The notes: a model not told the origin generated them from the sequence alone. Positions 33,920 through 60,484 are shown, counted from the first letter of the stretch. The stretch is 64,000 nucleotides of DNA from Podospora anserina (GCA_017654855.1 CM030337.1:1364001-1428000), one strand, 5' to 3'. A program made the numbers and translations.

Positions 33920-34039
33920 TAATGCCCTTCCTTTAGGCTAACGTCCCGTTAATTTAATTATCGATTATATATATTCTTTTCGTTTCCTTTTTCTTTTTCG
34001 TAAGTCTTTCACTCTTATCCTTTAATAGCCTAATTAACG

Positions 34040-38300: not shown

Positions 38301-41300
38301 TATTAATGTGTGGGTACTACTAAGTGCCCTACTTACTGCCCTACAGATTAATATTACAGTGGGCAGTACTGCTATAAGCAGTAATGGAACTTCCCGGCTT
38401 GGATCCCTTTAGAATGTTCTTTACAAGGGACCCTTAAAGGCTTACAGGGCTACTGTGGCCTGAGGCTTAGTTAATGGATACTAGAACCTTCTAAAGTGGC
38501 TACAGGCTTACGTAGTAAGTTGCCACAATAGTGTAATTTACAGGGCACCTCTGCTGCCGAAAGTTCTATGGATTTCCGTGAGTCTACACTAGACCTACCT
38601 AAGCCCACTAAATACCCCAAAGTGGTATAGGGGCTTCCAGGGCCTACAGGACCCACAGTAGGCTTACGAAGGCCTATATATAAACCTCTCCTCTCTCCTA
38701 TAAAATAGTTTTCTTTCTTTCCTTAAGGGCAAAAGCTTAAGGCTAAGGCCAAAGGCCAAAGCCAAGGGTAATAAAGGCAATTCTTATTCCTTATACCTCA
38801 CTGTATCACAGTGCTTTACCTTCCTTCGGCACTGCCGTCGTATCCTCCCGCTTCCGCTTGCGCACTGCTGTATTTTACAGTAACCCTATATAGGTTCTAT
38901 ATTATAGGCCTATTAGGGCTTACTAGCTAATAGGTTATGAGCCCGGGCAACCACCTAGCCCGGAATCTAGCCTACTTATGCGCTTCCAGTCGACGTACCT
39001 ACAGCATTATACTACAGGCTGTACGGCTTCTTACTAAGAAGCCTTTTCCAGTAGAATTAGCGCTGTACTATAGGCTTTACTACTGCTGTGATTATAACCC
39101 TGGCCAATACTTTTAGGCTAATTTATAGCACTGTACTACAGGCTATATAGCTTCTTACTAAGAAGCTTCTTTAGTGGAATTAGTGCTGTACTATAGACTT
39201 TCTACTGTTATAACTATAACCTTAGGCCAATACCTTCAGGCTAATCGTCGATTTACAGCACTATACTATAGGCTGTACGGCTTCCGAGAAGCCTACTTAC
39301 TAACCTATACGGTTATTTTCTACTAAGTCCTCGCTTTTACTATAGCTAACTAGCCTATAGATTAAAACTACTTAGGTATTATAAAGGCTACTAGCCCTAT
39401 GGTACAGGCCTTATCGGCCCGTATCGACACTATTAAGGACAGGCTTCGGCAGGTTATATTACTGTTTAAAGTTTAGGCTACTAAATAGCTAGTAGCTGTA
39501 CCGGCCACCCACACTACCGAGCCTCCCGTGGCTCTAGCTGCTTCAGTACCTTCAGTACCTATTATAGAGCCTTTTATAGCGACCTTTAGTACACTTATTA
39601 TAAAAGAGCTCGCTAAATAGTCCCTGAACCTCGCTAAATAATAGCGCTTTTTAGGACCCGATAATTATTAATAGTGGCACTAGGCTATTTCTATATAATT
39701 TAGGGCCTTTAGAATACCTGAATTTCTAGAAAATCCTAATTCGGTAAACGCCCGGCTTTCCGACCCACAGAAAGCAGCCCTGCTATTGACCCTCAGAAAT
39801 ATACTAAAGGAAGGCCCGTTATCCACTATAGCCTTCGAAACCGACCCCGTTGTGGCCTATAAGCGCCTTCGCTCACAGTACGCTCCGGCGCAGCCTACCC
39901 TCCGAGACGAGCTATATAAGGCCTACCACTACTTGCAATTCAATAGGTCTATACCTATCGTAGATTTTAACGCCCAATTTAATACCTACGTAAGTAGGCT
40001 CGGGGCCTTAAGCGTTGAAATAGCCTAAATCGACTAACTAAACTACTATTTTAACGTACTGGAAAACCATTTTCCACAGTAGGCCGAGCGCTGTAAAGGC
40101 CTACTTCGGTAAGAGTAATAGCTCTACTATATAGAAGGCAAGCTTATTAGGCTAAGCCTTTTGTATTTCCAGGAAGACTTTTTAGCCGAAACCCGTAATT
40201 CGGTTACTTCCACTGCCCACTAATTACAAGCCCTATAGGTTACCTATAAGCCTATTAATAGCGAAAAGAAGCTTAACTTTTAGGCTTCTTAAGCTTACCG
40301 GTCCTTACTAAATAAGGACTAAAAGCCCTATAAAAAATAGGGCAATAAGTAGTAGAAGAAAGGCTTGAAAAAGGACGACCGCTATAACGACCGTTATAAC
40401 GGCCGTAAAGACGGCCGTAAGCATAGTCGTAAAGACGACCGTAAGGACTAAAAGGACTTACCCGCTACCGAGGCTTTTACTATAGGCTACGACCTTAACT
40501 TAGGCACTGTATTTGGAAGTAATATAATTGAAGAATATAGCGACTTAGGGCCTAATCCTCCCGAAGAACTAGCTAAATTTAGCCACTTAACCGCTACACT
40601 ACGTACCCAGTGGCTCTTCGATACAAGCTCTACAGTGCATATCTGTAACAATAAAGCCTTATTTACCAACCTACAGTTTTCTTCTTCCCTGAGCTGTGTT
40701 GGTACAGGCGGTGGCCCAGTCAAGCTACAAGGCAAAGGCACTATAGAAGTTAAATTCTTTAGTGGTTTTAAGGGCAAAAAAGCGGTATATACTACTGTAG
40801 CCCTTAAGGAGACCCTCTATATTCTAGACTTTCTACTAAATATAGTTAGTAGTTATAGGTTCTACGCCTCCGGTGGGACCCTTCTTAAGGACCGCCTATA
40901 TTCAGCTTCCAGGAAGCTACTGGCCCTCCTTAACTTCAAGAAAAATAAGTTCTTTTTTACTACTAAAACCACGGTTCCAGCTAAAATAGAGCATTTAACG
41001 CTACAAGCATACGGCTCTATTTGGTGCTACAGCACTGAAGACAGCGATTTAGACCCTGAATTAACTACCATTACGCCTGAATTTCTAGCTACCATAGCGC
41101 TTACCATAGCGCCTACTACAGTGCTTACTATAGCGCCTACTATAGCGCTTACTATAGCGCTTACTATAGTGCTTACTACAGCGCTTACTATAGCGCTTAC
41201 CACAGCGCTTACCATAGCGCCTACTATAGTGCCTACTACAGCGCCTACTATAGCGCCTATCATAGCGCCTAAACCAACTACCACTACGGCGCCTACCCCT

Positions 41301-43827
41301 CGCCGTATAAAGCATTCGCCCTACCAACGTAACTAAGTGTTAATTTAGGCTGCAAGACTCTGGCACGTTCGATTAGGCTATATAGGCCTAGACCTTCTGA
41401 AGAAAACTGCCCTAATTACTAAGGGTATACCCAATTTATAGAAGGTATAGCCTACAGATCTGACCTGTAAGAGCTGTGACGTAACTAAATTACTGCGTAA
41501 ACCTTTTAAAAGGCCTGTAACGGACCTACCGTATACGCTGAGTCGAATAGAAGGGGATATATTTGTAATTCGACCCACCCTACTAAACAGCAGGCCTTAC
41601 GGGCTTATTTTAGTGGACCGTAAAACTCGGTACAAGCTTGTTAGGCTCCTAAAAACTAAGGACGAAGTCGCTATAGAGGCTCGCTCCGCTATAGAGAGCC
41701 TATATAATACTTATAAGCGTCACCCGGCATAATTCTACTACGACGGGGGCAAGGAAATTCGAAAGCTACTGCCCTACCTTACTGAAAAAGGTATAACCTT
41801 TAGTGAGTTTAGCCTATACGCCCACCACCAAAACGGCCTAGCCGAGCGCTCTATTCGGGTAATTTTAGAGCGTTTATAAATTACTATAGTAGCTTCTGGC
41901 CTACTATTTACCCTCTAGTGCTACGTAATTAGCTCTATTATAAATATTATTAACCGTATAGCTACTTCCACTAAGGAATTTACGCCCCACTAGTTATTTC
42001 TTAACGAATTGGTGCCCTTACAGGCCCCTCACGTCCCGGACCTCGGACCTTATAGGGCTATAGGCGCTAAAGTTCTAGTATTTATACCGCCTAAAAAACG
42101 TATTACCGTAAAGAAGCTAGAGCCTAAAGCTACTAAAAGTAAGCTTCTAGCCGTACTAAGTAATAATACTTACTTAGTGTGGCTAGGCCACCGGTAAGTA
42201 ATTTAAACGCTATTCGTTAAACTATATAAAGATTATAGGCTTTATTTAGAAGGACCTATAGTCTCCATATCGTAACTAAGGCTTCTAGAACTGGAAGATA
42301 TTAAGCTTTTAGAAAGGGAACCCCTTATAATTACAGAAGGGGCACTTACTGCAACAGCACCTCCTAGACCTATACTTACGGTAATAGTACTTCTAAAGCT
42401 TACTAATATCGAAGTACTATTTCCGTAAGCTACTAAGCTACAGAAGAAGGAATTCGAAGTGGTAAATAACGATACTATAGATACTACTGCTCTAGTAAAT
42501 TATTTTATTAACCAGGCTACTACAGCTATTACTTACAGCACTACTTCTATTAGCACAGAACCTAGGACCTTTAAACAGGCCCTGAAGCACCCACTAAAGG
42601 ACCAGTAGCTACAGGCTTCCTTTAGTGAACTATAGCAGCTACTGAATTCCAAAACCTTTTACTTTATTAACCGCTCTCAGGCTCCAAAAAGGCCTATTAC
42701 TAACCGATGGGTCTATAAGGCTAAAAAGGACTTATAGGGCTAAATTATTAAATTTAAGGCCCGGCTAGTAGTTAGAGGCTTCTAATAGGTATCCGGAACC
42801 GATTTCACGAAGACCTTTATAGCTACTACGGTACTACCTACCTAGCGGGTTTTACTAGCTATTGCAGCTGAAGAAGACTTAGAAATTAAGTAAATTGATT
42901 TTGTTAGGGCCTTTCTTAACGCTAGTGTGGACTCCGATATATATATGGAAGTCCCTAAAGGCCTATACGAATATAGCCTTAGTAGCTAAACCGCTATAGA
43001 CTTTCTAAAATAATACTGTTAGGACCCTTCGAAGGACTAAGTTATAGTACTAAAAAGGTCCCTATACGGCCTAATAAAGGCCCTACCAGCACCTAAATTC
43101 TAGCGCTTTTTAGAGCTGATGAATTACCGGAAGCCTAGTACTTATAAGGGCCCTACGGCCTAGTAAGTGGGCACCTAATACTCCCACAGAAGGGGTGTTA
43201 ATGTGTGGGTACTACTAAGTGCTTTACTTACTGCCCTACAGATTAATATTACAGTGGGCAGTACTACTATAAGTAGTAATAGAACTTCCCGGCTTAAATC
43301 CCTTTAAAATATTCTTTACAAAGGACCCTTGAAGGCTTATAGAGCTACTGTGGCCTAAGGCTTAGTCAATAGATACTAGAACCTTCTAAAGTGGCTATAG
43401 GCTTACGTAGTAAGTTGCTACAATAGTGTGATTTACAGGGCACCTCTGCTGCCGAAGGTTTTATAAATTTCCGTGAGTCTACACTAGACCCACCTAAGCC
43501 CACCAAATACCCCAAAGTGGTATAGGGGCTTCCAGGGCCTACAGGACCCACAGTAGGCTTACGAAGGCCTATATATAGACCTCTCCTCTCTCCTGTAGAA
43601 TAGTTTTCTTTCTTTCCTTAAGGGCAAAAGCTTAAGGCTAAGGCCAAAGGCTAAGGCCAAGGGTAATAAAGGCAATTCTTATTCCTTATACCTCACTGTA
43701 TCACAGTGCTTTACCTTCCTTCGGCACTGCCGTCGTATCCTCCCGCTTCCGCTTGCGCACTGCTGTATTTTACAGCAACCCTGTATAGGTTCTATATTAT
43801 AGGCCTATCAGGGCTTACCAGCTAACA
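38301..43827 (+). mobile_element. Element C: Ty1/Copia retrotransposon, RIP-mutated, with internal RT/RNase H deletion
   Basis: 632-bp LTRs 38301-38932 and 43196-43827; TSD TAAAT (38296-38300, 43828-43832); PBS GGTTATGAGCCC 38933-38944; PR WLFDTSSTVHIC; LWHVRLG; IN QNGLAER before RT (KFKARLVVRGF, LKRSLYGL); PPT AGAAGGGG. Confidence 0.92.
41089..41270 (+). repeat. 12-bp coding minisatellite (~15 units, ACYAYAGCGCYT) in the copia PR-IN linker
   Basis: Translates as TIAL/TIAP/TTAP repeats in ORF 40635..41336. Confidence 0.85.
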
Positions 43828-44025
43828 TAAATATTATAGTCGAAGGAAAAATAATATTAATTATATTTAATATTATAGATATAGGACTTTCGAAGGATAT
43901 AATCTTAAAGTAATTATAATATAAAAATTATAATTTAAATATCGATTAGAGGGATAATAATTATTTACGATTAAAAGAATTTTAAAAATATTTAATTAAC
44001 GATAAAAGATTAGGCGTACGTATAG

Positions 44026-44388
44026 TGAAATGGTGAGAAAACACACAAAACAACCACAACACCACAAATATACCCTCAACAGGTCTCAGAATGAACACAC
44101 CTGCGTGACAGTGACTCGCTCGCAGGCCGCACTTCACGTAGGACAAAGAAAAGACACTATGGGCTCGCAGGCCACATAATAAGCACCGGATTGGCCTGAT
44201 CAGAGGGCCAGAATTGCCTGCACGCGTGCAAGGCACAAAATACGAAGCAAAGAATAAAAGTCGATGTCCTGTCTAAAATAGAATGTCCGAAGCAGACCGC
44301 TTATATACATGACCCCTGAACCCCTGAGTCCTCTGAGAGCCCCGCTTCCTTACTCATACTCTCAGGCCTGTGGCCGCACCCCAAACCA
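44026..44388 (-). repeat. 3' LTR of element D
   Basis: Direct repeat of 55538-55900; preceded on the minus strand by PPT GAAGGGAGG (44391-44399). Confidence 0.95.
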
Positions 44389-44905
44389 AACCTCCCTTCG
44401 CATTTGACCACTACAAACCAGTGGGCAAATGCGTACACAAGAAAAAAATCCCTTACAAACCAAAAAAAAAAAAAAAAGAAAATATCGTTCAGCAGAAAGA
44501 AGGAAAACGATGTAATCCTGCTATCCCTTTATCCATTCTCCCTTGATCAGAGAGAAGAGCACCCTCACTTCTCGGATCTCAGAGCATACCTCCGTCCCTG
44601 TCGAGCCATCACAACTGGTGACCTAACGACCTCCTCCCTTCGTCTCTGAGGAACTCCAGGAGCCCACTCCCATCCCATGAAACCAGGTGTGTGATCAGGC
44701 GAAAGGTGTGTTGTTGGCGATCCTGAGTGGTCATAAGTAGGGGACGGGCAATTACAGGCCCAGAGAGGAGCGGCGAGTCCATTGTCACAGGAGTGCGGAA
44801 CCCAAAGGGGTTGCTACCCTGCTTGGTCGTTGAGAGTTGCTCGACACGCTACTTGGTCCAAACCCTTCATGATCAGAGGGAAGACCCACGACGCACTCAT
44901 CTCCC

Positions 44906-46087
44906 TCAACAGTAGTAACCAAAGCTAACGGAGAACCAGGGAGGGAAGCAAACCGGGGGAATTGGTGGAGACTTGAAAGGAGACGAGAGGGTGCTTGGCA
45001 GGTTGAATCCTTCCGCGTCCATCAAGTCCTCCAGGCCCCTCCTCCTCCATTTCTTATCACGCACCCTCTGATCAGGCTCACAACCCAAAGACCTTTTCAC
45101 ATAAGCCATCCACAACCTCATCATCTTCTTCCCCGCAACGCCCACGGTCTTGCAGTCTCTGTAGCAACGATCTCCTCTCCAAGCCTTTACTACCGTTAAA
45201 TCCTCCTCTTCACCGTACGAAACACCTCCCTGAAAGTAGGTACGGCAGTGCTCCAAGACCCAAAGACCACATTCCCACGCCCCGCCCTGTTCACCGCAAG
45301 CTGGCCTCCTCACTTTCACGTCAAGGCTGCAGTGGAAAGCGTGACGGATGTAAGATACCAGGCAAGAAATAGCATTAGCTTGATACCCCTTCCAATCCTT
45401 CGACGAGTCCATATAAACCAAAATGCCAGTAGCAACGTCGTAGATGCCCACTGCCCAGTGGCTTCCGTTGTTGACATGAATGGGGAGGACCCAGTATCGT
45501 CGGTCAAAGGCGTTGTGGTTGTCGTTAGGCAGGAAAAAGCGCATCGACGACTTCATCATAACAGGGTTCAGAGGCTCTCCAGGGATCCATATACAACGCT
45601 CGAGGATTCCCTGAAGAGAGTACCGAAGAGCGCAGGTAAGGACCGAGCTAGTGAGCCACTGCTTGGCCTCTAGTTGACCTTGAAGGTCATACATAGCGCA
45701 AGTGAGGGAAGCTACATGGATACCGTAGATGTGAGTCCGATCAGGGGGGGTCGTTATTCTCAAGCCAGGAAAAAGATATTTGATAGTGTCAATCGAAAAC
45801 TGCTCCACGAAAGTGGTGTTGATCCAGTCGGGCCGCCTTCCCACAACATAATCTCCTGGGTCGGCAACCAGGTTAAGGCCAAAACGAACAGGCCAGAGAG
45901 TGTCATCGCCTTGGGGAAGGAAGATGCCGCGCGGGGGACCAGAGCCATAGACCCTGTCGATACCTTGAAGGCGCGCTTTCCGAATAATCTCTTTAACGAG
46001 ATCATTGGGAGGGCCGAATTTCTTGGTGGCGGTGAATTCTTCCCATGACATGTCGTGAATGGACTTTGTAAAAAGCGTTGATGACAT
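44906..46087 (-). CDS. Ulp1/SENP-like cysteine protease (peptidase C48) encoded inside element D
   Basis: WLTSSVL, WVLPIHVNNGSHWAVGIYD (His), VYMDSS (Asp), EQGGAWECGLWVL (oxyanion Gln + catalytic Cys); 393-aa open frame, 3' end may be extended by splicing. Confidence 0.8.
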   Translation of the reverse strand: MSSTLFTKSIHDMSWEEFTATKKFGPPNDLVKEIIRKARLQGIDRVYGSGPPRGIFLPQGDDTLWPVRFGLNLVADPGDYVVGRRPDWINTTFVEQFSIDTIKYLFPGLRITTPPDRTHIYGIHVASLTCAMYDLQGQLEAKQWLTSSVLTCALRYSLQGILERCIWIPGEPLNPVMMKSSMRFFLPNDNHNAFDRRYWVLPIHVNNGSHWAVGIYDVATGILVYMDSSKDWKGYQANAISCLVSYIRHAFHCSLDVKVRRPACGEQGGAWECGLWVLEHCRTYFQGGVSYGEEEDLTVVKAWRGDRCYRDCKTVGVAGKKMMRLWMAYVKRSLGCEPDQRVRDKKWRRRGLEDLMDAEGFNLPSTLSSPFKSPPIPPVCFPPWFSVSFGYYC

Positions 46088-46352
46088 CGTTCTGTGAGAA
46101 TTGAGAGGGAGTAGTGTGTGGTGTGATCTGTGATCAGAGGGTTGTCGAGAGGGAAGTGAGGAATTTTTTTTGGAATGGAGAGTTAAAGAGGGAAGAAGGT
46201 CTTCGGTGAGTCTTTGTTCTCTGTTGTCTGCCTGGCTTGTAAGGCAAGATCATCAGATAGTTGCGTAAGCCGTTTGAGGAGGAAAGAGCGCTCTGATGAG
46301 TCTCCCTCCTGTAGAGGTCTGTAGGACCAGTCGCACCGTCCTATCCTCTGGT

Positions 46353-46360
46353 TATAAATA
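46353..46360 (+). promoter_or_regulatory. TATA box (TATAAATA) in the 342-bp spacer between the divergent accessory genes
   Basis: Canonical TATA 70 bp upstream of ATG 46430, followed by a CT-rich leader. Confidence 0.55.
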
Positions 46361-46429
46361 CCCATGCCAGTTCTCCTCATTCCCGCTCACTCCTCATCTT
46401 TTTCAGTACTTATTAACCGCTTCCTCCCA

Positions 46430-47500
46430 ATGGCCTCTTCTTTGAGGAAACCTGCTGCTTCGTCCGATCAGGCGGTCGACGACCTTACTACCCAGGTATC
46501 CACGACCTCTTTCGCCAAAAAACTTCCCAGTCAGGTCGAGGGAGTCCTTGACCTTACTGCGTACGACTGGTCCGAGGTCGCCATAGACCCTACTCAAGAG
46601 CCTTTGCTTGCTACCCTCACTCATCGTCCCACCGACCTCACCCGTGCTCCCAACAATCAAGGCGTTGCTTACAAGAGGCACGTCTGGGTTCGGCGTCCTA
46701 CTTGCGTTCACGACTCCACCATGCCCAAAGGTGCTAATGCTTATCACGACATTTCTCTCCCCCATCAGGCTGCTCTTTGGTACCTCAAGATTTCCCCTCT
46801 AGATCCCAAACACGTGGCTGCTCCCCTCTACCTTGAGTGGTTCCTCCCTGATCCGACGAAGAAGGGGGGTAAGAAAGAGTGGCAGCTACTTTTCAAGGAC
46901 ATTGGTGCGGACAAGACTATCACTGATTACATCTCCAAGGCGTTGTCGACCGGTTCCGTTAGGCGGATTTTCGTCGAACGGTCCAATGGGTGGTTCTTCG
47001 GGCGCTGGCTCTTCGAAATCGTCAAGCGGGCTCATCGCTCTAAAGGCTTATTTGTCCAGGCCACCGGGTTACTGTAAGTGCCGCCCCCCTGATCAGACTT
47101 AGCCTGACACTAACATGTTGGATTCAGTCATGCCAATCCATGTGATAAGTGCGATCAGAGCTATCGCCGGTCTTTCGTGACGTTCCCCGATGGGACCAAA
47201 ACTAAGGTGATGTGGCCATACTTCGGTTGTGTGGGAAGAGAGGACCTCGATTGGAAATGCGGGAACTGCTGGCATAAGGGTATCCATTACTCATGGTCCA
47301 GTGTTGATGAGGACAGCCCTTACTTCAAGGATCTTGGTAGTGGTGGGTTATCGAAGTTGGATCGTGGTGCCGTGAGCTTGATTCCTGGTGGTAAGGAAGT
47401 CGATTGGGACCAGGAGTGGGAAGAACAGCGGGCTGAGTACAAAGAGCTTAGGAAACAGCAGATGGATAAGAAGAAGGAGAAGAAGAAAGAAAAAGAATAG
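46430..47500 (+). CDS. Spliced antisense accessory gene of element D, 338 aa, Cys-rich DUF3716-like putative Zn/DNA-binding domain and basic tail (exons 46430-47073, 47128-47500)
   Basis: 54-nt intron GTAAGT...ACTAAC...CAG joins the two ORFs in frame: FVQATGLLHANPCDKC...WPYFGCV...KCGNCWHKG. Confidence 0.72.
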
Positions 47501-47748
47501 TCTTCCACTTCCTCAGATCAGAGGAAGGGGCATAAAGAGAGGAGTAAATCGGAAAAAAAAATAACAGGAAAAGAAAAAAAAAAAATTAAAAATTCAATGC
47601 GATAATCTTCACCCCAATCAATCACCTCCCTTAATGTCTTTCCTCCCTTTAAGAACAGACAGCTCCCACAGCTCTGTTCTCACAACACAAGCTTCAGTAC
47701 CCTCTTAAAGAAAAACAACAACTACAACGCCTTCGTCATCGTCTCCCC

Positions 47749-50700
47749 CTAATCACCCAAGAAGTCCTCTGGTCTACCCTTCTTCAGGACCACCTCTATA
47801 CTTTTGCCCTTCTCAAATCTCTTCTGCACCTCAGCATTCTTCCGTTCCATCCAAGTCTTCCCCCTGGTCATCATTCTCCCTGGTGTTTCTTCCACTATCT
47901 CTTCTTCTTCATCCTCATCTTCCACCATATCCACGCCTTCCTTCACTCCATTCCCAGGCACCTGCTCAACTCTCCCTAGTCCTGGCTGCATGTCCGTATC
48001 CTCTTCATCTACATACACGTCTTCCAACCTAAAAAACTTCTTTACCCTGTTTAGCGTATAAGAAGCTCGCAATGGCACCCCATCCAGTGTCTCCAGGAAG
48101 TAGCAAGTGTTGCCTGGTTCGACCTTCCTCACTCTGAAAGGGCCGTCCCAGCGGTACTGTAGCTTCCTTACCACACTCATATCCAACTTTCTATCCATTT
48201 TATACACCAACACCAAGTCCCCCCTTCTGATCATGCTATTCTCAGGCCTAATGCTGCGAATCCCTTTTCTGTTCTTTCTTGCCGCGGCTTTCTGTCTTGC
48301 CATACCAACCCTCTCAGCCACCAGAGTCAGATTCATCTCCTGGGATTTCAATAGTCTCGCCCTTGCCTCTATTAAATCCATAGTCGCTCTCTCCTTCCAG
48401 TGTCTCCCTGATCTGTCGAAGCCAATCTTTTCCCACTGGACGACTCTCCATAACGGTACGTCCTTTTCGATCGGCGTAATGGGGTTAAACCCATGTGCCA
48501 GATAGAAAGCACTGTACCCATAAATACCTCGTGTCGTGGTCCTATCAACAAACAACACATAAGGGAGCCACTGCTTCCACTTCTTCCCCGTCCCATCCGT
48601 CATTTTTGCCAGCATCGATGCAATTGGGATGTGACCAGACTCCGTCACTCCATTTGCTCTTGCGTTGTAAGGTGAGACCACCACCCGAAGAACTCCTAGC
48701 CTCTCTAAAATCTCAGCAGCTTCCTTCCTAAATTCTGATCCGCCGTCCACCACCACGATCAGAGGGTGACCCCATCTAAGGATGATATCGTGCAGGATAA
48801 AGTTCTCAACCCCAGAAGCCTTGCCTGAGCTCAAGACCTTCGCTTCTGGATACCCAGTCAAGTCATCCCTCGCTTCCAGAAGGTAGGCTTTTTCTCCCGA
48901 AGCCGTTGGTAAGAACTGAACGTCTAAATGCCACTTCGCAAATGGAGTAGCTAAAGGCTCAGTATATAAGTGCCAGTCCTCCCAACGCTTCGGGCTCCAT
49001 TGTTGACATTGCCTACATGTCTTGATCCAAGCCTCGACGTCAGCGTACATACCCTTCCAGTAGTAGTTTTCTACTACTCGGGCATAGGTAGCTTCCCGTC
49101 CTTTGTGGCCCATCTCGTTGTGACACGCATTGAAGACTCTTTCCCGCTCGATCAGAGGGTCAACAATTCTCCTAGGGGGAAAGCCTCCTTTATTTAGCTT
49201 AAGAAACAAAACTCCGTCTTCGAGAATCATTTTCAGGGCGTCATTCTTAATGGTCTGAACGTCAAACCTCGTCTTAGCCCTTGGCTCCGCACCAGTCGCG
49301 AGGAACTCGGCGATAGCATGGGAGTAAGGAGACCACAGTCCATTCAAGTAGGGGCCTTGCCCAATAACTTCCTTTTTCTTCTTCCTGATATTCACCCGCC
49401 AGACACTTACTTCCTGGATATCGTTCTTCCAGATCCTTGCGTCAACCTCATCATCAATGTCTGGCTCTAACTCCTTCTCCCTCAGATCAGAGGGGCCAGG
49501 TGGCTTTCTCGATAGTGCGTCTGCCACAAGGTTCTTACTCCCAGGGATGTGAACAATTGTGAAGTCGAAAAGTCTAATCCATCCCAGCCATCTCATCATC
49601 AAGGCGCCGGGAACGTCACTAGCCGCCCCCTGGACTTGGTGGACTACCACTTGAGCGTCCGTTTCCACCGTAAAGTATACCCCGAAAAGATACCTTCTAA
49701 ATCTCCTCAAAGTATACAACAGTCCTCTCAACTCCCTCTTGGTGGCATCATACCTCTGTTCAGCCGGGCTCCAAATACCACTCTCAAACCGACAAGGGTA
49801 CCGTTTTCCATCAGGTCCTACTTATTCAATCACCGCTCCCCACCCCGTCAAGCTTGCATCAAAAATAACAAAGATTCTACCGAAACGGTCGTCATCAAAC
49901 GTCAGAGAAGCCAGACACGGTGCCTCTATAATCAAAAAGGCAAGCCACTCCATCGCACCCTGTTAAGCTTCCGTCCATTCCCATCTCGTGTCCTTCCTCA
50001 TCAAGAAATACAGCGGAACTGCAATCAGATTGAAGAGAGGTACCCATAGCCGATAGTAACCGGTGATCCCCAGGAAGGCGCGAACATCCTTAAGACTGTG
50101 GCAAGTTCGCCATTCCCTTATCTTCACTATCTTTGTCTGATCAGGGAGGCGCCCGTCCGGTGTACAGGAATAGCCAAGGATAACAGCTTCCCGTCTGCAC
50201 CAAAGGGATTTCACGGCTGCAATTGTGGCTCCTGCAAGCTCACAGTTAAGCAAGACTGCGTCGATATTCTTCAAGTGCTCCAGGACCCACTTCCTAACTC
50301 CTGGCCTTTCTTCTTCACCATTGTAGTCCCACCTTGGCCCTTTCACTGCGATATCGTCCAGGTATGGCCGACACACCTGTGGGATAAGATCTTGAAAGAC
50401 TCTGGTCACGGCTCTTTGGAACTGGGCCACTGAGTTGGTAGCTCCTTGAGGTAGGGTACACATCCTGAATAGGCCGATAGGTGTCGCGAAGGTAGTGAGG
50501 TCTCGGCTCGTCAGGGCTAATTTGACTTAGTCGTATCCGGAGAAGAAGTCAAGCAAGGAGGTAATAAGGCACCCTGCAAAGTCCTCGCTGAACTCCTCAG
50601 TGCTTGGTGGGATAAAGGCATCTCGTTGCGTAACCTTATTGTATCTCTGGGCATCGTTGATCAGACGGAGGCCACCATCCTTTTTCTTTACTAGGAACCA

Positions 50701-53700
50701 GTTATTGCGGTAGGGACCATGCGCTTCCTCAATAATATTTCTCTTGATTCGTTCCCTAAGGAGATCGATGACTTTCCCCACGAGTGGCTTCGGGATCGGA
50801 ATAGACTTGCTTTGCCACGCTTTGTGAGGGATAGTCCTAATATGTTGAGCAGGGAAGACTTCTTCAAGGATCTGTCCACACTCGGTGAAGTCCCATGCCA
50901 GTGCAGCCTCCCTTGCGAATAAGATTGCCGTAAACACTTTAACCTCCTGATCTATCAAAATGTCGGTGGTTTGTCTGATCAGATCGGCTAAGCGTTCTGG
51001 AGTGAGGCGTGACCCTCTAATCATTTCAGAAAACTTAGGGACCACAATATCGTCGAATTCTGAGCCGTATTGTAGGGATTCCTTAACTGCCGCCCATCTC
51101 CTTACTTTCCAGTTCGGATCTCCTTCAGGAGTGCTACCATCTGACCCAGCATTATCAACCGGCTTCACCTTCTTATCTACCCTCTTGTACATCGTAGCAG
51201 TAGTAACAATATCCGCAGGCGTTGGCCAGGCCTGTTCAAAAGTAGTGATCAGGCTGGTCTTCATATTGTTTTTCTTCTCAGAAGGGGGCGGAGGTGGATG
51301 ACGTCTATGTGGTTGTGTAGTGAAGAGGCTGCGCTAACCTGGTTGAGTGAGGGACCAGTTAAATATCCCCAAGCATAAGGATGCCATATCGGGCTTAAAT
51401 GGGGTTATCCTGCTAGTCCTCTGATCAGACGGCGGCGATGTCTTTAGCAGTGGTGGCGACGGTACTAAATGCAGACCTGTTATGAAGGTCGGTGGTGGCG
51501 GTCGTTCTTTCCCTGAGATTTCGTCCGAAGTTAGAGTTCTTGTCGTAATTTCCACTCTTCCAGGCTGAAACAAAGACTTCTCTTTCTGGCAGTCCCTTAT
51601 ACCTCCCTTCTTTCCTTCCCTCTGATCACTAATATTCTTTCCTCCCTTGCTCCTAACATCCCCCTTTTCTTTGTTTTTATAAGAAATAATATCAGACGCC
51701 AGGCAATAATTTAATAACGGCAAACTTGACTCCCCCAAAATAAAATTAAGCAAAGAACGCCCAGCTCCTTCATTCAGTCCCCCAATCACTTCATCCCCTT
51801 CCTCCAGCTCCTCCGTTACCCACTCAGGGACAGGTACTCCTTCATTAACCAATCCCTTAAACACCTGTAAGGGTCAGCTGGCAGGAGAGGCATTACCTCG
51901 ATCCCTGCCGTTATATTCCGCCTTCATCTTATCAATCACCTCCTTTTTTACCACGTGGGCCTTAATCAGCTTTCCCCCATACAACATATTCGCGCTAATC
52001 ATACAGCCCTTCATAAAATCAAGGGTGAGGCTCGTATCCGTGAAGAACGGGATGCCCAATAGCAGGTCATGGAAACCCAGAGCCTCAGTGTTATCAATAA
52101 CGAAGAAATAACACAAAATTGGAACCCCAGCCAGCACTACTGGAGCCTGAGTCTCACCTATAAACGCAACCGGATCTCCATGAAGGCCTTTAGACTGTAG
52201 GTTCGTCGACACCATCGGTAGACAGAACCTCTCAGCTACAGCCCTACTGATCAGGTTGCACTCCGAGCCTGTGTCCAACATTGCCAGCACCTTCTCTGAA
52301 GTTGGTGAGACGAAGTTACAATATAGCGATGGGACGTTATGGGTTCGAGTGACGGCTCCCAGGAGAGTTCGCTCACTACCGGAAAGCCGGCCAATGGGCG
52401 TAGACAGCAGAGTCCGCAATCGCTCTTCTGGGCTGTCACCCGGTTGGACCTTGCCTTCGATGATCTTCTCCCAGATGCCTCCCTCGACCACACCATACTC
52501 ACCATCCGCCGTAATCCCGTACAAAGCAGGGACAGTCTTCCTCTGATCAGACGGAGGAGTCTTACTGTGTCCAGCCGTCTGAAAATTCGTCCGAACCGTT
52601 AACGGCAAGGCCTCCCCCTTCTGTGGGACTTCTCTCTTTCCATCCGGGGTACTCTTGGAAGATCCACGCCACTCGATCACCTCAGCATCCTCGGCCACAC
52701 TCTTCACGTAATCCATCAACCGGTAAACAAATGTGGGTGAAACCCTACAATGCTCTTCCAGTGTGAACTTAGTCTGACCACAGGCGTACTTTTTGGCTTT
52801 CTCGGCAATATAATCCCCAGAGTCCTCTGCCTCACCATCAGGCAACCTTGAGCCACTCCGGACTCCATCCCCCTGATCGGACGAGACTCCCTCCTCAACT
52901 ACCTTTGGCTTCTCTTACGCGGGGGTGAGTACCACTTTCGGATTTTCGGCTGAGGCTGGGTCATCCATATCCTCTTTCGGCAGATCCTCGATCCTTACTC
53001 TCTTCGCTCCTTGCGCGCCTACCCCCACTTCCACCTCTTGGTTGCAGACGACCACTGGGGCATCATCAGAGCGCTTCAGAATGCTCCTAGGCGACCACTT
53101 CTCTGCTGAGCAACGTTGCAAGGCATTCCTAGTAATGTAGTCACTGGCTGAGTTCTCGTTAAACGGTACGTAGGGTTTGGAGTACCCATGAAGCCTGTTT
53201 AACCTAACATCCATAGCCCTGGCCATCTGAGTAGCTGTCTGCTCCCTCCCTCTGATCAGAGAGACCTCGGGCCTATATCCCTTGCCCTCACGAGCTTCCC
53301 AGTGCTCAGCCCATTTCGTGTAAGCTTCATAGGCCCTATTCAGTTCTGGTTTCAACGAAATTGCAGCACGAACCAGGTCGCCAACCTTCCCTTCACGCTG
53401 CGCCTTCCTCACATCCTCTTGATCAAGCCACGCTTTTTCACTCTCCGGCCACTCCTTCTTACCGATACACACTCTGCCTCCTTCAGTATAGCACAGTCCC
53501 CACGCCTCATCATACTCCTTCTTCGGACACTCCGTCGACTTAGCGTAATGGCCAGTCTTGCCGCACCAGAAGCACCTTCTTAGTGGGGGAGGGCTATCGC
53601 GGTACTGCCCCCCTAATCTTCCGAACTGGGTTTTAGTATCAACAATGGGGAAGGTATTAAAAGACGAATCCATTTCCCCATTAGGGCCAATGCCAAAATC

Positions 53701-54957
53701 CAGGGAGTAAGGTGCCTGGTCTTCTAGGTGTTGAACGCGGGTCCTCATTATCCCAGATTTGCCGTTTCCCGGTGCAGAGAAACCACCGTAGATATTCGCC
53801 CTCAAATGCTGCAGTGCCATCTCTCTGTCTACCATAGCGTTAACCGCCATATACTGGTCGAGCACCTCGGCCGCCTGATCAGAGGCAGCAGGGGAGGGTG
53901 CAATGGTTGATTTGTCCTCCTTGTAGATTCTTCCTCCCACGTCATACCCATCTTCGATCACATCATTAATCCAATCGCTCCAGGTAATAAAATTCATGGA
54001 TCTTAAACGACGTTCGGATCCTCCTCGGTTGATAAGGGTCATCCTCATTAACTCGGAGAATTTCATCCAAAAGCGGCTGGCAACCCTGGCTCTTACTGCC
54101 TCTTTCTCCCCGGTCGGCACTCGAGAGAGCAGTTTAGAGTGGTCAAAAACAACCTTCCTTAACTCGCCCACACCTTCAGGGATAACCTTGGCGTAGAAGT
54201 CATCCAACTCCCTGTGGATATCTTCGTCTTGTCGGGGGTCATAGATCTTAAAGAGGCGTTTAAGGCGGACAACCAGGACAGGCCAAGTATCGGTGGGTGT
54301 AGGTAGGTCTACACATTCGTCAATCTGTTTTCCCACATCGAAGTCACACCAGGATTTGAACTTGCGAACGCGAGAGGTAAATTCCACGACATGGTACTCT
54401 TCACAGGCATTCTCGAAACGCTCCAGATATTCCGTAAAGTGCTTCCCTTTGAAGTTGCTCTTAAAACCGACTTTCTTCGGATCAGGGAATTCACGCTGAG
54501 GAAAATACATAGGCACCATGGGATAGGGGGTTGGATGATCAGACGTAGGGGACCCCTGGAAGTGGCGATAGTCGGGGTAAGCTCCTATGGGATATGGGTA
54601 TCCGGGTTGCTGGAATTGATGCGCGAACCCAGGAAGAGGAGCGGGATATCCGGCATGCCGAGTGGGAGGCGCAGTATGATTCCAAGCAGCAGGATTTGGG
54701 TGGGTACGAGGTCCACCTGGCACGTCAGGAGCGTTGGGCCTTGCAGTCGGGCCACCTTGATCAGAAAGGGGGCGAGGGGTCTCAGCATCTTCAGGGTGAG
54801 CGCGGTTCGCAGCCGGGGAGAGGACGAATGGTGATGATTCCGGGGACCTGGCCGCCGGAATGGCCACTTCTACCACGGAACGAGCCGTAGGAGCTTGATA
54901 CCCCTGGTTGTCGCCGGGAAGGCTAGCCGAAGCGATGGGTGGGACATTGTCGGACAT
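47749..54957 (-). pseudogene. gag-pol of element D: one reading frame (~2400 codons) with six in-frame stops
   Basis: Zn knuckle CFWCGKTGH...C; PR MLDTGS; RT LDFFSGYD, LPQG, YLDD; RH FDAS, ETDA, ADALSR; IN H..H..CRQC, HLD, VDGG, NGVTE, WDGPF; no chromodomain; all consecutive ORFs share one frame. Confidence 0.88.
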
Positions 54958-55518
54958 GTCGATACTCGATGATTGCTGTTGCGTTTGCGTTGGTGGTATG
55001 GCTTTTTCCTTGTGTATGTTGTTGGAAATATGAAGACGGTTGTCCCTTGCAACTCCAGTATGTGGGCATGAGTTACATCTACCCAGATCAGAGGGAAAGT
55101 GTCCTCGTCTCCTTGCTTTTGGGTTCCCGATGTCCTGAGTCAAACTGACCCGGAAATCCCCACGATTGTCCACCATCGCTAAACAACACACCAGGAGGAT
55201 TCCTCCTAACCAAAGATAGGAGAGGACTTTGATAGTTGACGCGGAGATAAGGTCCACTAACGAGCTAGTCTCAACCAATGCTCTTAGTTCACTTCCCGGT
55301 CCCATCCGGACCACACACTTGACTCTCCACTCGCGGGCAGAAAGTTTAGAGTTTGGTCGATGATGAAAGAGCTTTATCCGATCAGACGGAGAAGAATCGT
55401 TTCCGTTGAACCTCGCGGGGTTCAGTGAAGTTGTCGGTGCTTGTTGTCGTTCGTGGCTTCGCACTTCCTCCAGTACCCAGGGCTTGTGAGTCCAGTTTGG
55501 ACCCTGAGCTTTGCTCAA

Positions 55519-55535
55519 CCCGGGCACGACCTCCA
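55519..55535 (-). promoter_or_regulatory. Primer-binding site of element D, complementary to a tRNA 3' end (tRNA-Gln-like)
   Basis: Minus strand TGGAGGTCGTGCCCGGG begins 2 nt after the 5' LTR; complement CCCGGGCACGACCT-CCA. Confidence 0.75.
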
Positions 55536-55537
55536 TT

Positions 55538-55900
55538 TGAAATGGTGAGAAAACACACAAAACAACCACAACACCACAAATATACCCTCAACAGGTCTCA
55601 GAATGAACACACCTGCGTGACAGTGACTCGCTCGCAGGCCGCACTTCACGTAGGACAAAGAAAAGACACTATGGGCTCGCAGGCCACATAATAAGCACCG
55701 GATTGGCCTGATCAGAGGGCCAGAATTGCCTGCACGCGTGCAAGGCACAAAATACGAAGCAAAGAATAAAAGTCGATGTCCTGTCTAAAATAGAATGTCC
55801 GAAGCAGACCGCTTATATACATGACCCCTGAACCCCTGAGTCCTCTGAGAGCCCCGCTTCCTTACTCATACTCTCAGGCCTGTGGCCGCACCCCAAACCA
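55538..55900 (-). repeat. 5' LTR of element D
   Basis: Direct repeat of 44026-44388; TATATAA on the minus strand ~55813-55819. Confidence 0.95.
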
Positions 55901-58900
55901 ATAGAGTAAAGTATAGGATAAATACCCTCTACGGTATTACTATAAGGAACCTAAAAAGTAATAGTATATTTTATTAATATAGGTAGTAAGATCGAAGAAG
56001 TAGGGTTAATAACGTTAATAGAGATATCGGAGGTTAATAAATATATTTATTATAATAATATAAAGAAAAGCGAGAAAAAAGCGGTACCGGTAAAATATTA
56101 AAGATATTTAACTTTTACGGTTAAATATTTAAAGGGACTTTTAGAGCGAGGACCGTAAAACTATAAAATTAAATTAAAAAAAGGAATTAAGTTACGGCTA
56201 TTTAAAATTTATTATACTAATAATAAATAAAGTAAAGAATTATAAAAATATTTAAATAAAAATTTAAAGAAAAGATATATTAAGGAATCTATATTACTAG
56301 TAAAATACCTTATATTTTTTATACCGAAGAAAAACGGTAATTTATAATTATATATAGATTATTATTAATTAAATAACGAAACGGTAAAAAATAGTTATTT
56401 ATTACCGTTAATATTTAAATTACGGAGTTAATTAATAGGAGCGTAATACTTTATATATTTAAATATATTTATCGGATACGTTTATATATAAATTAAGAAA
56501 GGAAATAAATAAAAAATAGCGTTTTATATATTTTATAATTATTTTAAGTATCTCGTAATACTATTCGGGCTAATTAATATACCTATAACGTTCTAATCTC
56601 TCGTTAATTATATAATCCGGAAATACTTTAATAAAATAGTAATATACTATTTTAATAACGTTTTTATTTATTTATATACTTTAAAAAAGTATAAGCGATA
56701 CGTATAAAAGATACTTAATACACTATACAGAGCCAGACTTTTAATTAATAAAGAGAAAAGTAAGTTTTATATATAAAAAATAATATATTTAAAATATTTA
56801 ATATTATTAAAAGAGGTTCGTATAAAACTTAAGAAAATTACGGTAGTTAAGGATTAATTTATACTATAATTATAGATATATATTAAAGAATTTTTAAAGT
56901 TTATAAATTTCTACCGGATATTTATTCGAGGGTATATAGGTATTACGTAATTATTTAATTATTTAATTAAAAAGGATGTAGAGTTCCGGTAAGAGTAGGA
57001 AGAAAAGTAGGCCTTTTAGGAGCTAAAAGAAATTATTTTAAAGGACTTAGTATTTAAATTATTAAACTTTAATCGACTATTTAAAGTCGAGGCGGATATA
57101 TTAGACTATACGATCGGTGGACAATTAGGGTAGCGAGACGACGACGGTAAGCTATACCCGGTAGCCTTCTTTTCGAAGAAGCTCGAAGGGGTACGTTAAA
57201 ACTATTTAATTTATAATAAAAAGTTATTTACTATTATTAAAATATTCGAGGAATAAAGGTTATACTTTAATAATATTAAATATAAAATATAGGTTTATAT
57301 AGATTATAAGAATTTACGGTACTTTATTATTACGAAGGTCTTTAACGTATAGTAAATACGATAGTTAGAGTTTTTTTCGGAATTTAATTTTTAAATTAAT
57401 TATAAAAAGGGTTCGGAAAATATTAAAATAAATATATTTAATTAGCGGGCCGATTACTATAAAAATATATTTAGGGAGTTACTATTATTATTTAAGGAAG
57501 CGCTAAACGGTATTTTTAAGTATTTACTATAGTTATAAATAAAGTATTATATAATATATTATAAAAAAGTTATTTCTAATAAATATTAAAGGAAGTTAAG
57601 TAACGATATTACGGAATAATATTAATAGGAAAAGTTAAAGCTATAAAGTATTTAAAAAAAATAATTAGGGAAGATTATAATATAAAAGTCGAGCGTATAT
57701 AATACTAGGTAATAGAATAATATTAATAATAGAGATTTACGGATCGAAGTTCGGAGGATATATAGGTATCGTAAAGATTATAGAAAAAATTAAGTAGTAT
57801 TTTAATTAACTAAGGATTAAAAATAACGTTAAGGAAATTTTTTAATTATATTATATATACGAAAAAACAAGGGTTACGAAGTATAAGCTTTATAGATTTC
57901 TAAAGTTATTATTAATAGTAAAATAATTATAAAGTTTAATTATGATATATTTTATTATTAAATTATTAAAGTTTAAAAATATAGTAATTAACGTTAAGTA
58001 TAATAATATATTAATAGTAATTAATAAGTTTATTAAATAAATATACTTTTTACTTTATAAAGAGATTTAGTTAGTAAAGTAATTAACGGATATAGTATTA
58101 TAGTATATTATATTAATATATATATAATTAAAAGAATTTATTACGGACCGCGATATTAAATTCGTATTAAAGTTTTAAAGAACGTTAATAACGAGGCTAA
58201 GGGTAATAAGTAAAGCGTTTTCGGTTTATTATTTTTAGACGGACGGTTAAACGGAACGGTTTAATTAAATTATAAAATAATATTTACGGAATTATATTAA
58301 TTTCGAGTAGGATAATTAAGTTAAATTATTATTTATAATATAATTAATATATAATATATTATTAATTAAAACGATTAAAATTATATTATTTTTCGTAAAT
58401 TTTAAATATAAAATAAATTTATAATAGGGACCTAGCGTTAAAGTACTTAGGGCTAAAGTTAAAATAAATAAATTATATATATTTTACGGTAAATTTAAAT
58501 AAAAACTAAAGTTTATAAGGGAAAAGATACAGAAATATTATAATACTAAAAAGCTTAAGGGATCTTACTTTAAGGGGGGGGATATAATATTCTTTTTTAT
58601 ATATAATTTACGTATTAAAAAACTTAATAAGAAGCTAGACTATAGGAAAGTAAGTTTATTTAAGGTTAAAAGGAAGATCTTAAAAACGGTATTTAAATTA
58701 AAGCTACCTACTACGATACGTTTACGGTTATATACATTTTATATCTTACTTTTAAAACCTATATTATTAGTAAATAAAATTAATATATAAATAGTGGCGG
58801 AGAACGAAAAAAAAGAGTATGATATAGAAAAGATATTGGATTTACGGTTTAATAAAGGTTAATTAAAGTATTTAGTTAGTTAGTTAAAATATCCGGTTAT

Positions 58901-59299
58901 AAATAATTTATAAAAGTTAAAAATAAATTTTAATTATTTAAATAAGTAAAAAGAATTTTATTAGTAATACCTAGACCGATTAAAATTTAAATAAAAATCG
59001 AACCCGTACCTTCGACGTAACGGTCGACATATTATATATTATACTATTAAATTAGTAAGTATAAAGGAATCTAAACTTAATTAATACTATACATTTTTAT
59101 TACTATAAAACAAAGAGGTACTACCGGTAATAAAAAGGGAGATTTATATTTAAATTTACGGAAAAATATTTATAAATCTAAATACGGAAGAACCTCGACG
59201 GGAATCGAATTTATATTTTTAACGTAATAATTAGTGTACTATATACTATACTACGAGGTTAGAAAGTATAAAGAGACCTAAATATAAATAGTACTGTAC

Positions 59300-59995
59300 G
59301 TTTTAATTATTTTAGGAAATAAAAAGCGTACTATTAATAATACTTTACAGAGTTAAGAAGGAAGGACCGGCTATACTAAAGTTTAAAGGAAGGTCGGAAA
59401 GCTAGTTGAAGCTTAAGGAAGGATTTAGAAAAAAAAAGTCGGAAGGATCCGAGGGAGTAAAGTTAAAAGAAGAAGCGTTATTAGACGACGGGATAATTAG
59501 CGCGGCCTACATAATTTCTTTTTATTCGATACGTTCGGTAACTTCTAACTCGTTAAAAAAAGAGAGGCCGCGGGCGACTATAACGGCTCCTTTATCTATA
59601 AGAAACTTACGTTAACGACGGACCTACGATAAACGAACTAAAGCTTTAAAAAGTTTTTATTAATATTCGATTAAAAAAGTTTTAATATATTTCTTTTTTT
59701 ATTAAAAATAATATTACTTTCGTATAATTTTATTTATTAAAAAAAGATTAATAAAGAAGAAGAAAGAGGTAACGGGAGACTTATATAATAAGATAGGGAT
59801 ACCGGTACCGTTATATAAACGACTATAATATACGTAAGCTTTATAACGCTTTACTTTATTTATTATATAATAGGATAACCCTTATAAGTTATACTACGAG
59901 TAAAGTATAACGAAGAAATTATTTTTAATAATATTTTAAACGAATTTAATATAGTATTATATAAATAACGATAGAGGTTTTACTATAGATATAAT
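59300..59995 (-). pseudogene. RIP-inactivated antisense Zn2Cys6-like accessory gene of element B
   Basis: Inverted homolog of 34040-34730; TAT/TAC codons fall at CX2CX6CX8CX2CX6C spacing; boundaries approximate. Confidence 0.55.
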
Positions 59996-60116
59996 ATTAA
60001 TTAGATTATTAAAAGATAAAAAGAAAGATTTATAAAAAAAAAAAGGGAAAATAAGAAAAGCGTATATAGTTAATAAAATTAGGCTAACGGGACGTTAATT
60101 TGGAGGAGGAATATTA

Positions 60117-60484
60117 TATTACGGACCTAATATAAGTAGGGAGCGCGGGGCGTAACCGTTTAATTATTAGAATAGAAAAGTAGGGAAGTCGGATTATTAT
60201 TAGTGTTAAAGGTAATAATTACGATTATTATTAATTTTCGATAAATAACGAATAATAATCGATATTATTACTAGTAATAATAATAATAAACCGGTCTATA
60301 TATACGGAGGAACTAACTAATATAAATAAATAATTCCGTAATATATAATTTAATTTATATTTACAGTATTTAGTATTTATATTAAAATATTTTATTATAT
60401 ATTATTTAGTTACACCGAACTAATTGTTAGAAGTTACCTTTAATTAGTATCCCTTTTAGAGGTTCTGTATAGGGGTTCGTTACA
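60117..60484 (+). repeat. 3' LTR of element B
   Basis: Follows the PPT; direct repeat of 36438-36805. Confidence 0.88.

Follow-up and report, generated by a model that had tools for sequence, protein, structure and literature searches.

A short GATC-cored motif is over-represented and evenly spaced along a young Ty3/gypsy retrotransposon of Podospora anserina, possibly as recognition sites on double-stranded DNA

Why should a single LTR retrotransposon carry the same short word some 36 times from one LTR to the other, in genes on both strands as well as in non-coding DNA, and what, if anything, reads it? The locus lies in a 64,000-nucleotide stretch of Podospora anserina DNA, referred to here as the window, to which all positions apply.

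The element, its genes and its relation to other strains

Positions 44026-55900 hold one complete Ty3/gypsy (Metaviridae) LTR retrotransposon of 11,875 bp on the minus strand, set in RIP-degraded, AT-rich host DNA of a Podospora anserina-complex genome. Direct TG...CA LTRs are flanked by a 4-bp target-site duplication and adjoined by a primer-binding site and a polypurine tract, and the pol order is that of Ty3/gypsy elements, with a DTGS protease upstream, followed by RVT_1, RT_RNaseH(_2) and Integrase_H2C2 (Pfam). The element is young. Other strains present an empty site, where contigs run from 44021 directly to 55901, leaving out 11,879 bases. Searches of the window with blastn and tblastn revealed no further copies, as the matches were the element's own LTRs and gag-pol. 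The features are as follows.

44022-44025, no strand: target-site duplication ATAG, left copy, read directly; the same four letters stand at 55901-55904 beyond the other LTR
44026-44388, minus: 3' LTR, 363 bp, TG...CA, 100% identical to 55538-55900, with one palindromic motif site at 44196-44207
44390-44401, minus: polypurine tract, sense GCGAAGGGAGGT, 1 base from the 3' LTR, read directly
44906-46087, minus: accessory ORF of 393 aa, Ulp1/C48-peptidase-like by a weak Pfam match (PF02902), with two motif sites inside
46430-47500, plus: ORFx, antisense accessory gene (exons 46430-47073 and 47128-47500), with four motif sites, one of them intronic
47074-47127, plus: ORFx intron, GTAAGT...CTAAC...CAG
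47752-54957, minus: gag-pol polyprotein frame, start MSDN at 54957
48991-49152, minus: gag-pol integrase zinc domain (Pfam Integrase_H2C2)
49666-49977, minus: gag-pol RNase H (Pfam RT_RNaseH(_2))
50170-50691, minus: gag-pol RT (Pfam RVT_1)
52255-52278, minus: gag-pol protease DTGS, seen by eye
53527-53574, minus: gag-pol zinc knuckle
55523-55535, minus: primer-binding site, sense TGGAGGTCGTGCC, 2 bases from the 5' LTR, read directly; its complement has a CCA end
55538-55900, minus: 5' LTR, 363 bp, TG...CA, carrying a motif site at 55708-55719

The proteins closest to gag-pol are those of Colletotrichum, Zalerion and Ophiocordyceps, at 39-44% identity. The Ulp1-like ORF matches PF02902 with E=0.0015 and 18.8 bits, under the gathering cut-off of 20.7, and its candidate catalytic His, Asp and Cys were picked by eye, without alignment.

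Six in-frame stops interrupt gag-pol (52917, 51876, 51336, 50529, 49965 and 49824), four of which are among RIP-like changes. Other strains carry an intact copy, of which the window copy is, judged from its sequence, a version lightly mutated by RIP: 65 of its 76 differences from the contigs of run X13 are an A in the window and a G in the contig, and 36 of the 40 difference sites listed are TpA in the window. This is the RIP signature of C-to-T change at CpA (on the opposite strand, TpG becomes TpA), with one strand dominant.

Counts, nulls and spacing of the motif

The array extends from 44196 to 55719 with the half-site consensus (T)GATCAG-R-S-G-G-A. Once the palindromic CTGATCAG is merged, it comprises 36 sites with a GATC core, 11 of which are palindromic, 18 plus-only and seven minus-only:

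44198, 44545, 44693, 44871, 45070, 45739, 46132, 46466, 46850, 47091, 47153, 47516
48229, 48410, 48737, 48757, 49150, 49485, 50139, 50659, 50949, 50977, 51247, 51423
51624, 52249, 52545, 52875, 53254, 53877, 54480, 54537, 54759, 55086, 55380, 55710

The original prediction listed 29 plus-strand GATCAG positions, and our recount returned the identical list. Counted on both strands of the whole window, GATCAG occurs 65 times where 26.1±5.0 are expected, a number attained in none of 100 shuffles; 47 of these occurrences fall within 44196-55715 and 18 across the remaining ~52 kb. The 10-mer GATCAGAGGG was likewise found in the predicted 11 copies (eight plus, three minus; 0.13 expected), every one of them within the element, and no exact copy is present in the other 52 kb of the window. 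The strongest k-mer outliers of the element are motif words (TGATCA, CTGATC/GATCAG and TGATCAGA), and k-mer tables of the host DNA at 1-32000 contain no comparable motif word that stands out.

The over-representation of the array is established against composition-, codon- and host-matched nulls alike. In the gag-pol frame used for codon-preserving shuffles (47752-55587, with some 210 codons before the probable start), 23 sites are observed against 8.9±2.5, with a maximum of 18 in 1000 shuffles and none attaining 23, while the non-coding parts of the element hold 10 sites against 1.5±1.2 expected (maximum 7 in 1000). The element has 3.03 sites per kb and the host 0.47, and in 32 kb of host genes the enrichment is gone, the 15 sites there lying under the host's own null of 21. 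The sites occupy all three codon phases and are spread over three genes on two strands, an intron, the LTR and UTRs, which bears out the claim that LTRs, spacers, an intron and coding sequence all carry them. The claim that protein sequence does not account for the motif stands too, since the excess holds both under codon shuffling and in non-coding DNA. Sites coincide with protein positions that are conserved among relatives (RLIN, GPSDL) and with others that are unconserved, and those within conserved peptides involve no indels. Around the sites no longer repeat unit could be recognised, only families of 20-23 nt centred on the motif.

The even spacing that had been proposed is borne out as well, with a coefficient of variation of the gaps of 0.56 against 0.97 under the null (P=0.0002) and a largest gap of 713 bp, where the null has a median of 1262 (P=0.0015). 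Gaps of 250-420 bp make up 16 of 35 (6.7 expected), with a mode at about 330 bp. An adjacent-gap period of about 326 bp is marginal (P=0.045), and a strict period was not significant either over all pair distances (P=0.27) or over positions (P=0.16). At least two motif sites have been destroyed in the window copy by RIP-like damage, and a third is likely, all of them within longer gaps:

47749-47754, no strand: lost motif site, CTAATC here and CTGATC in other strains
51017-51022, no strand: lost motif site, CTAATC here and CTGATC in other strains
53613-53618, minus: likely third lost motif site, GATTAGGGGG on the minus strand

Between 2 and 5 of the 18 to 21 motif TpG positions were hit by RIP-like mutation, compared with about 9.7% overall; the motif is therefore hit at about the general rate, which gives no sign of shielded sites. 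Beyond the element, GATTAG/CTAATC words, the form that a RIP-converted motif would take, number 11 in 32001-44025 against 5.6 expected (P≈0.017), and two in 55901-62000 against 2.0 expected.

Could such an array be functionless, left behind by biased mutation or repair, by short duplications within the element long ago, or by the way codons and dipeptides are used? Codon-preserving shuffles still yield 8.9 sites, so that part of the count does come from protein sequence and codon usage, and the full reading of the element covers one copy. However, the excess persists under the codon-preserving null and in non-coding DNA, the same genome's host DNA shows no enrichment, the motif-centred families of 20-23 nt belong to no longer repeat unit, conserved peptides take up sites without indels, and mutational bias is not expected to generate even spacing. 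We consider a functionless origin very unlikely. As for the age of the array, inspection of the three closest protein relatives (39-44% identity) revealed no excess of SDQ-type peptides, and the array may thus be young and lineage-specific. Among metagenome sequences, five loci were confirmed out of 32 pattern matches, two of them short fragments, in which 35-40 residues match at 54% and 44% identity, and the other three at 33% identity; the latter lie on microsatellite-rich contigs without a comparable word and were dropped as comparators.

Candidate readers of the array

We were curious to know at which level the word would be read. The asymmetric extension GATCAGRSGG occurs 13 times on the plus and six times on the minus strand, against 0.14 expected per strand and a maximum of two in 400 simulations. 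An excess in both orientations points to strand-independent recognition, as a signal on one RNA would favour a single orientation. Nevertheless, transcription probably covers both strands, given that ORFx runs opposite to gag-pol, and so the two-strand excess does not strictly exclude reading at the RNA level. A signal of this kind on the genomic RNA or its cDNA might serve Gag or nucleocapsid binding, packaging, or contacts within an RNA dimer by way of the palindrome CUGAUCAG, or might act as RT pause or strand-transfer sites that favour recombination of co-packaged RNAs. Full-length RNA holds all sites save those in the untranscribed parts of the LTRs, 11 of the 36 sites are palindromic, and the sense RNA ...CCYCUGAUC includes UCUG, a nucleocapsid-binding word in a retrovirus. 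Besides, dispersed packaging signals are evenly spaced in RNA viruses too, and element-covering contigs of 11.4-11.5 kb occur in runs that we guess to be RNA, one of which has the spliced ORFx junction; among the samples listed for the element, none is recorded as RNA. In addition to the two orientations, two structural results weigh against this explanation. Hairpin covariation between the left and right arms of the sites was not found (symmetry 129 versus 154.5 for shuffled partners, in a test biased by the choice of sites), and the predicted unpaired probability of the core did not differ on either strand from that of 33 other GATC sites or of random positions (P 0.24-0.45). The array accordingly does not show the stem-loop on one strand by which RNA packaging or structure signals are recognised. 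We regard an RNA- or cDNA-level signal as unlikely.

The original prediction preferred protein landing sites on double-stranded DNA to an RNA signal. This preference is strengthened indirectly by the two-strand excess and by the lack of a shared hairpin or accessibility signal. In the product of 46430-47500, which the prediction named together with Gag for binding assays, no DNA-binding fold was recognised. We tentatively prefer, with confidence that stops short of even, the reading that the array consists of selected recognition sites on double-stranded DNA for a putative sequence-specific protein. The motif (T)GATCAG-R-S-G-G-A would then be a cis-element under selection in this retrotransposon family, present at about one site per 330 bp over the whole integrated element and read on double-stranded DNA. 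We infer both the binding of a protein and the function of the array, which may act on the chromatin or transcription state of the element; it might, for example, hold a unit of 11.9 kb open amid RIP-derived AT-rich heterochromatin, or else identify the element as self. Candidates for the binder are a host factor and the product of the element's own antisense gene, a Cys/His-rich protein with weak likeness to DUF3716.

The same dsDNA-type evidence, that is, the two-strand excess and the even spacing, would also suit targets of a putative host defence or chromatin factor in sequences that are otherwise needed, or sites with a role apart from expression, such as replication, pairing or clustering of copies. 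Precedents are the arrays of binding sites for zinc-finger proteins at chromosome pairing centres and, with a spacing of about 340 bp, CENP-B boxes. An element is expected to shed sites of a repressor, however, and not to accumulate 36 by its choice among synonymous codons, and we hold this explanation to be distinctly improbable.

With regard to the preferred reading, a spliced and probably expressed accessory gene with a Cys/His-rich C-terminus such as ORFx could supply the binder. Comparative sequence evidence indicates that 46430-47500 holds a genuine gene that is spliced and belongs to a small family in fungi: 17 remote homologues were found, the 338-aa spliced form P0207 is a member of the same 90% cluster, and record 11 of run X13 connects 47073 to about 47130, in runs whose RNA nature is a guess. 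The likeness of ORFx to DUF3716 is weak and should be taken as a lead only. Spliced P0207 scores 14.3 bits against PF12511 (E=0.038), under the cut-off of 22, and DUF3716 is found in 28% of the members of the nearest Atlas cluster (score 0.89). DUF3716-domain genes are reported as accessory genes of an unrelated fungal DNA transposon (PMC8232023). An Atlas search with exon 2 of ORFx returned unnamed viral clusters only (score 0.87), and a word-based search recovered only ORFx itself. The single-sequence fold was poor (pLDDT 38.6); for the alignment-based model (pLDDT 61.8), Foldseek gave no match to the PDB at E<=0.001 among the 103 matches listed, and Pfam detected no DNA-binding domain. ORFx is a candidate binder of the motif and nothing more. 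A bolder proposal, which we rate as a long shot, envisages a self-contained module against silencing in which the array is the address: ORFx would bind GATCAGRSGG at about every second nucleosome and tether the Ulp1-like deSUMOylase, SUMO-dependent repressors would be removed, and an active island would be maintained in RIP-made heterochromatin.

Reading on DNA would make the array an example of how a long element keeps up a chromatin state of its own within heterochromatin in a RIP fungus, and the motif together with its candidate binder would offer an easily tested handle in a model fungus that is tractable. Should the word be read on RNA or cDNA instead, LTR retrotransposons would have their first described case of a dispersed signal for packaging or recombination.

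Comparison with known systems

LTR families of the P. anserina complex, crapaud, grenouille and others, are described in the text of two reports as Ty3-type RIP targets with few putatively active copies (PMC10787394; bioRxiv 10.64898/2025.12.02.690432). The present element shares with them the host group, the Ty3 type and the exposure to RIP. It differs by description from crapaud, which has about 7.3 kb and about 800 bp of LTRs in total, as implied by the text of PMC10787394, while here 11.9 kb, 363-bp LTRs and two extra genes are found. The texts of PMC10787394 and bioRxiv 10.64898/2025.12.02.690432 make no mention of such a motif; in one of them the word 'motif' denotes the TpG LTR end only, and in the other it is absent. 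The papers listed in the literature searched contained no description of the motif, including as GATCAG, CTGATCAG, GATCAGAGG, CCTCTGATC or TGATCAGA.

The gypsy element of Drosophila carries a cluster of 12 Su(Hw) sites, an insulator, within a few hundred bp of its 5' untranslated region. Like the present case, it is a Ty3/gypsy-type element with many copies of a short motif, which in gypsy is bound on double-stranded DNA by a zinc-finger protein with effects on chromatin; here, in contrast, about 36 sites are distributed evenly over 11.9 kb, mostly within coding sequence, and the binder is hypothetical. Single-stranded RNA viruses have dispersed packaging signals in the form of stem-loops, confined to one strand. 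They resemble the array as many degenerate short motifs that run fairly evenly through coding sequence and are kept by synonymous choice, but in the present array the excess extends to both orientations and the sites showed no structure in common. Chi, DNA uptake sequences and KOPS are 8-12-mers over-represented through genes in any frame and have a reader at the DNA level. The word described here runs through genes in any frame as they do, although they extend over whole prokaryotic genomes and this one is private to a single eukaryotic mobile element. In alpha satellite, CENP-B boxes follow one another at about 340 bp, and the pairing centres of C. elegans carry arrays of zinc-finger motifs; both are protein-binding short words every few hundred bp, yet they belong to tandem units or non-coding DNA, whereas here no underlying repeat unit exists. 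Clusters of factor-binding sites are known in the non-coding ends of mobile elements. To our knowledge, no other eukaryotic retrotransposon has been described with a private 10-bp word running evenly through its whole body, which in the present element comes at the expense of synonymous, and even amino-acid, choice.

The GATCAG array and the element that carries it

Over both strands, the window contains 65 copies of GATCAG against 26.1±5.0 expected, and 0 of 100 dinucleotide-preserving shuffles reached 65; 47 of the copies lie within 44196-55715 and 18 in the other ~52 kb. All 29 plus-strand positions of the original prediction were reproduced exactly, as were its 11 copies of GATCAGAGGG (0.13 expected; eight on the plus and three on the minus strand), none of which lies outside the retrotransposon described here.

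Features of the retrotransposon
44026-55900, minus strand: single complete LTR retrotransposon, 11,875 bp
44026-44388 and 55538-55900: LTRs, 363 bp, TG...CA ends, mutually 100% identical
Both sides of the LTR pair: target duplication, ATAG, 4 bp
2 nt from the 5' LTR: primer-binding site, CCA at the end of its complement
1 nt from the 3' LTR: polypurine tract
54957 (MSDN...) to 47752, minus strand: gag-pol, single frame
44906-46087, minus strand (sense): Ulp1/C48-like peptidase ORF, a weak likeness (18.8 bits, below the 20.7 cut-off)
46430-47500, plus strand (antisense to gag-pol): ORFx, with a canonical intron

The gag-pol domains follow the Ty3/gypsy order (zinc knuckle, DTGS protease motif, Pfam RT, RNase H, integrase zinc domains), and the closest proteins, which share 39-44% identity, are gag-pol products of Colletotrichum, Zalerion and Ophiocordyceps. 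Long A-rich tracts at 44450-44489 and 47458-47598, in the non-coding spacers, were passed over as repeats when reads were placed.

Of the element's 69 GATC sites, 36 are preceded by CT or followed by AG, comprising 11 palindromic CTGATCAG, 18 plus-only and 7 minus-only sites. Their half-sites (n=47) give the consensus GATC-A-G-(A30/G16)-(G25/C15)-G29-G32-A23, and the remaining 91 GATC flanks in the element lack a comparable consensus.

Motif sites in parts of the window, observed and expected
Gag-pol frame, codon-preserving shuffle: 23; 8.9±2.5 (maximum 18 of 1000)
Ulp1-like ORF, codon-preserving shuffle: 2; 0.6
ORFx exon 1, codon-preserving shuffle: 2; 0.45
ORFx exon 2, codon-preserving shuffle: 1; 1.5
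Non-coding parts (2,351 bp): 10; 1.5±1.2
Host DNA 1-32000: 15; 21

Enrichment in the gag-pol frame thus survives the codon-preserving null, and host DNA is not enriched; the top k-mer outliers are motif words in the element only. The view that no protein constraint underlies the motif holds as well, since every codon phase is used and the non-coding parts are also enriched; peptides under the sites are in some cases conserved in relatives (RLIN, GPSDL) and in others unconserved. A search of the element for a longer repeat unit beneath the sites found none, and we consider it improbable that the array is a functionless by-product. A host-factor or non-expression role appears only slightly less improbable.

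Spacing and the nature of a proposed reader

The roughly even spacing originally proposed is borne out by a gap CV of 0.56 against 0.97 under the null (P=0.0002); no gap exceeds 713 bp, and under the null the longest gap has a median of 1262 bp (P=0.0015). Gaps of 250-420 bp account for 16 of 35 (6.7 expected). Evidence for a period of about 326 bp is marginal on adjacent gaps (P=0.045) and non-significant by other measures.

The asymmetric GATCAGRSGG occurs 13 and 6 times on the two strands where 0.14 would be expected, and 400 order-3 simulations never gave more than 2. Hairpins gained no support from arm symmetry within sites (129 versus 154.5 for shuffled partners), a test biased by site choice. 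The predicted unpaired probability of the core at motif sites (0.48 sense, 0.50 antisense) was indistinguishable from that of other GATC sites (0.39 and 0.42; P=0.24 and 0.35). Orientation, symmetry and accessibility together favour a reader of double-stranded DNA, as the original prediction had preferred. Its alternative, an RNA signal, stays a rival: both strands of the element are probably transcribed, so RNA reading is still compatible with the both-strand enrichment, and a signal at the RNA or cDNA level strikes us as rather unlikely. Tentatively, we read the array as a selected cis-element of the retrotransposon family, foremost as double-stranded DNA recognition sites that cover the element evenly, its binder and function being what we infer.

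Light RIP of this copy

The flanks (32001-44025 and 55901-62000) are repeats heavily degraded by repeat-induced point mutation (RIP), with GC of 0.19-0.43, TpA/ApT of 1.73 and 1.35 and (CpA+TpG)/(ApC+GpT) of 0.43 and 0.07; the corresponding element ratios, 0.79 and 1.15, indicate that the element is not degraded. In the left flank, GATTAG/CTAATC, which a single RIP change would make from the motif, seems mildly enriched (11 versus 5.6), including GATTAGAGGG at 43944.

The element is present in contigs of four same-organism runs from four studies. Contigs of one of these comparison runs, X13, differ from the window at 76 positions, of which 65 have A in the window and G in the contig, and TpA stands in the window at 36 of the 40 best-supported A/G positions listed (574 further differences lie beyond these), which is a RIP signature on one strand. 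Gag-pol has six in-frame stops (52917, 51876, 51336, 50529, 49965, 49824) and no frameshift; those at 49824, 49965, 50529 and 51336 are among the listed positions, are C-to-T on the sense strand and are missing from other strains. The copy in the window therefore derives, by light mutation, from one that was apparently open, and these four stops beside identical LTRs fit light RIP to which the 363-bp LTRs were not subject.

Two motif sites were destroyed by listed changes (CTAATC at 47749 and 51017, CTGATC elsewhere), and a third was likely lost at 53609-53618, where the minus strand reads GATTAGGGGG. Adding the two confirmed lost sites, or all five CTAATC sites, leaves the gap CV at 0.53-0.57. 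RIP-like change in this copy affected 2 to 5 of 18 to 21 motif TpG positions, roughly as often as elsewhere (~9.7% overall).

Contigs of two other strains connect 44021 to 55901, omitting 11,879 bases (the element and one duplication copy); such joints may represent empty sites, or else copies of the repeated flank that lack the insertion. Among the window's host genes, those at 27270-28529 and 5062-6543, both on the minus strand, encode a member of the MT-A70 methyltransferase family and a PHD-finger protein carrying a STAND-type P-loop NTPase.

Accessory genes and related systems

A full-text search on the motif words returned nothing relevant among the matches listed. Podospora LTR families and RIP are described in PMC10787394 and in a centromere paper (bioRxiv 2025, 10.64898/2025.12.02.690432); the portions of their text consulted do not mention the motif, and the supplements may give a library sequence and a name for this family.

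The two extra genes, the Ulp1/C48-like ORF and ORFx, are located between pol and the 3' LTR and diverge across a 340-bp spacer holding the motif site 46132. An intron-less 338-aa form, P0207, shares a 90% protein cluster with ORFx, and a short X13 contig connects 47073 to about 47130, the splice junction; hence the ORFx intron is genuine and the gene probably expressed. Compared with P0207, ORFx in the window has five missense differences that are RIP-type on the plus strand (G-to-A), among them the replacement of a Cys in the Cys/His-rich C-terminus, and a sixth, His/Tyr, just past the junction. Its 17 remote homologues (E 2e-14 to 3e-4), one labelled Parachaetomium, almost all end at the exon-1 boundary; ORFx is a member of a small fungal family that is as yet unnamed. 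ORFx also bears a weak likeness to DUF3716; according to PMC8232023, DUF3716 genes accompany a DNA transposon of Zymoseptoria as accessory genes.
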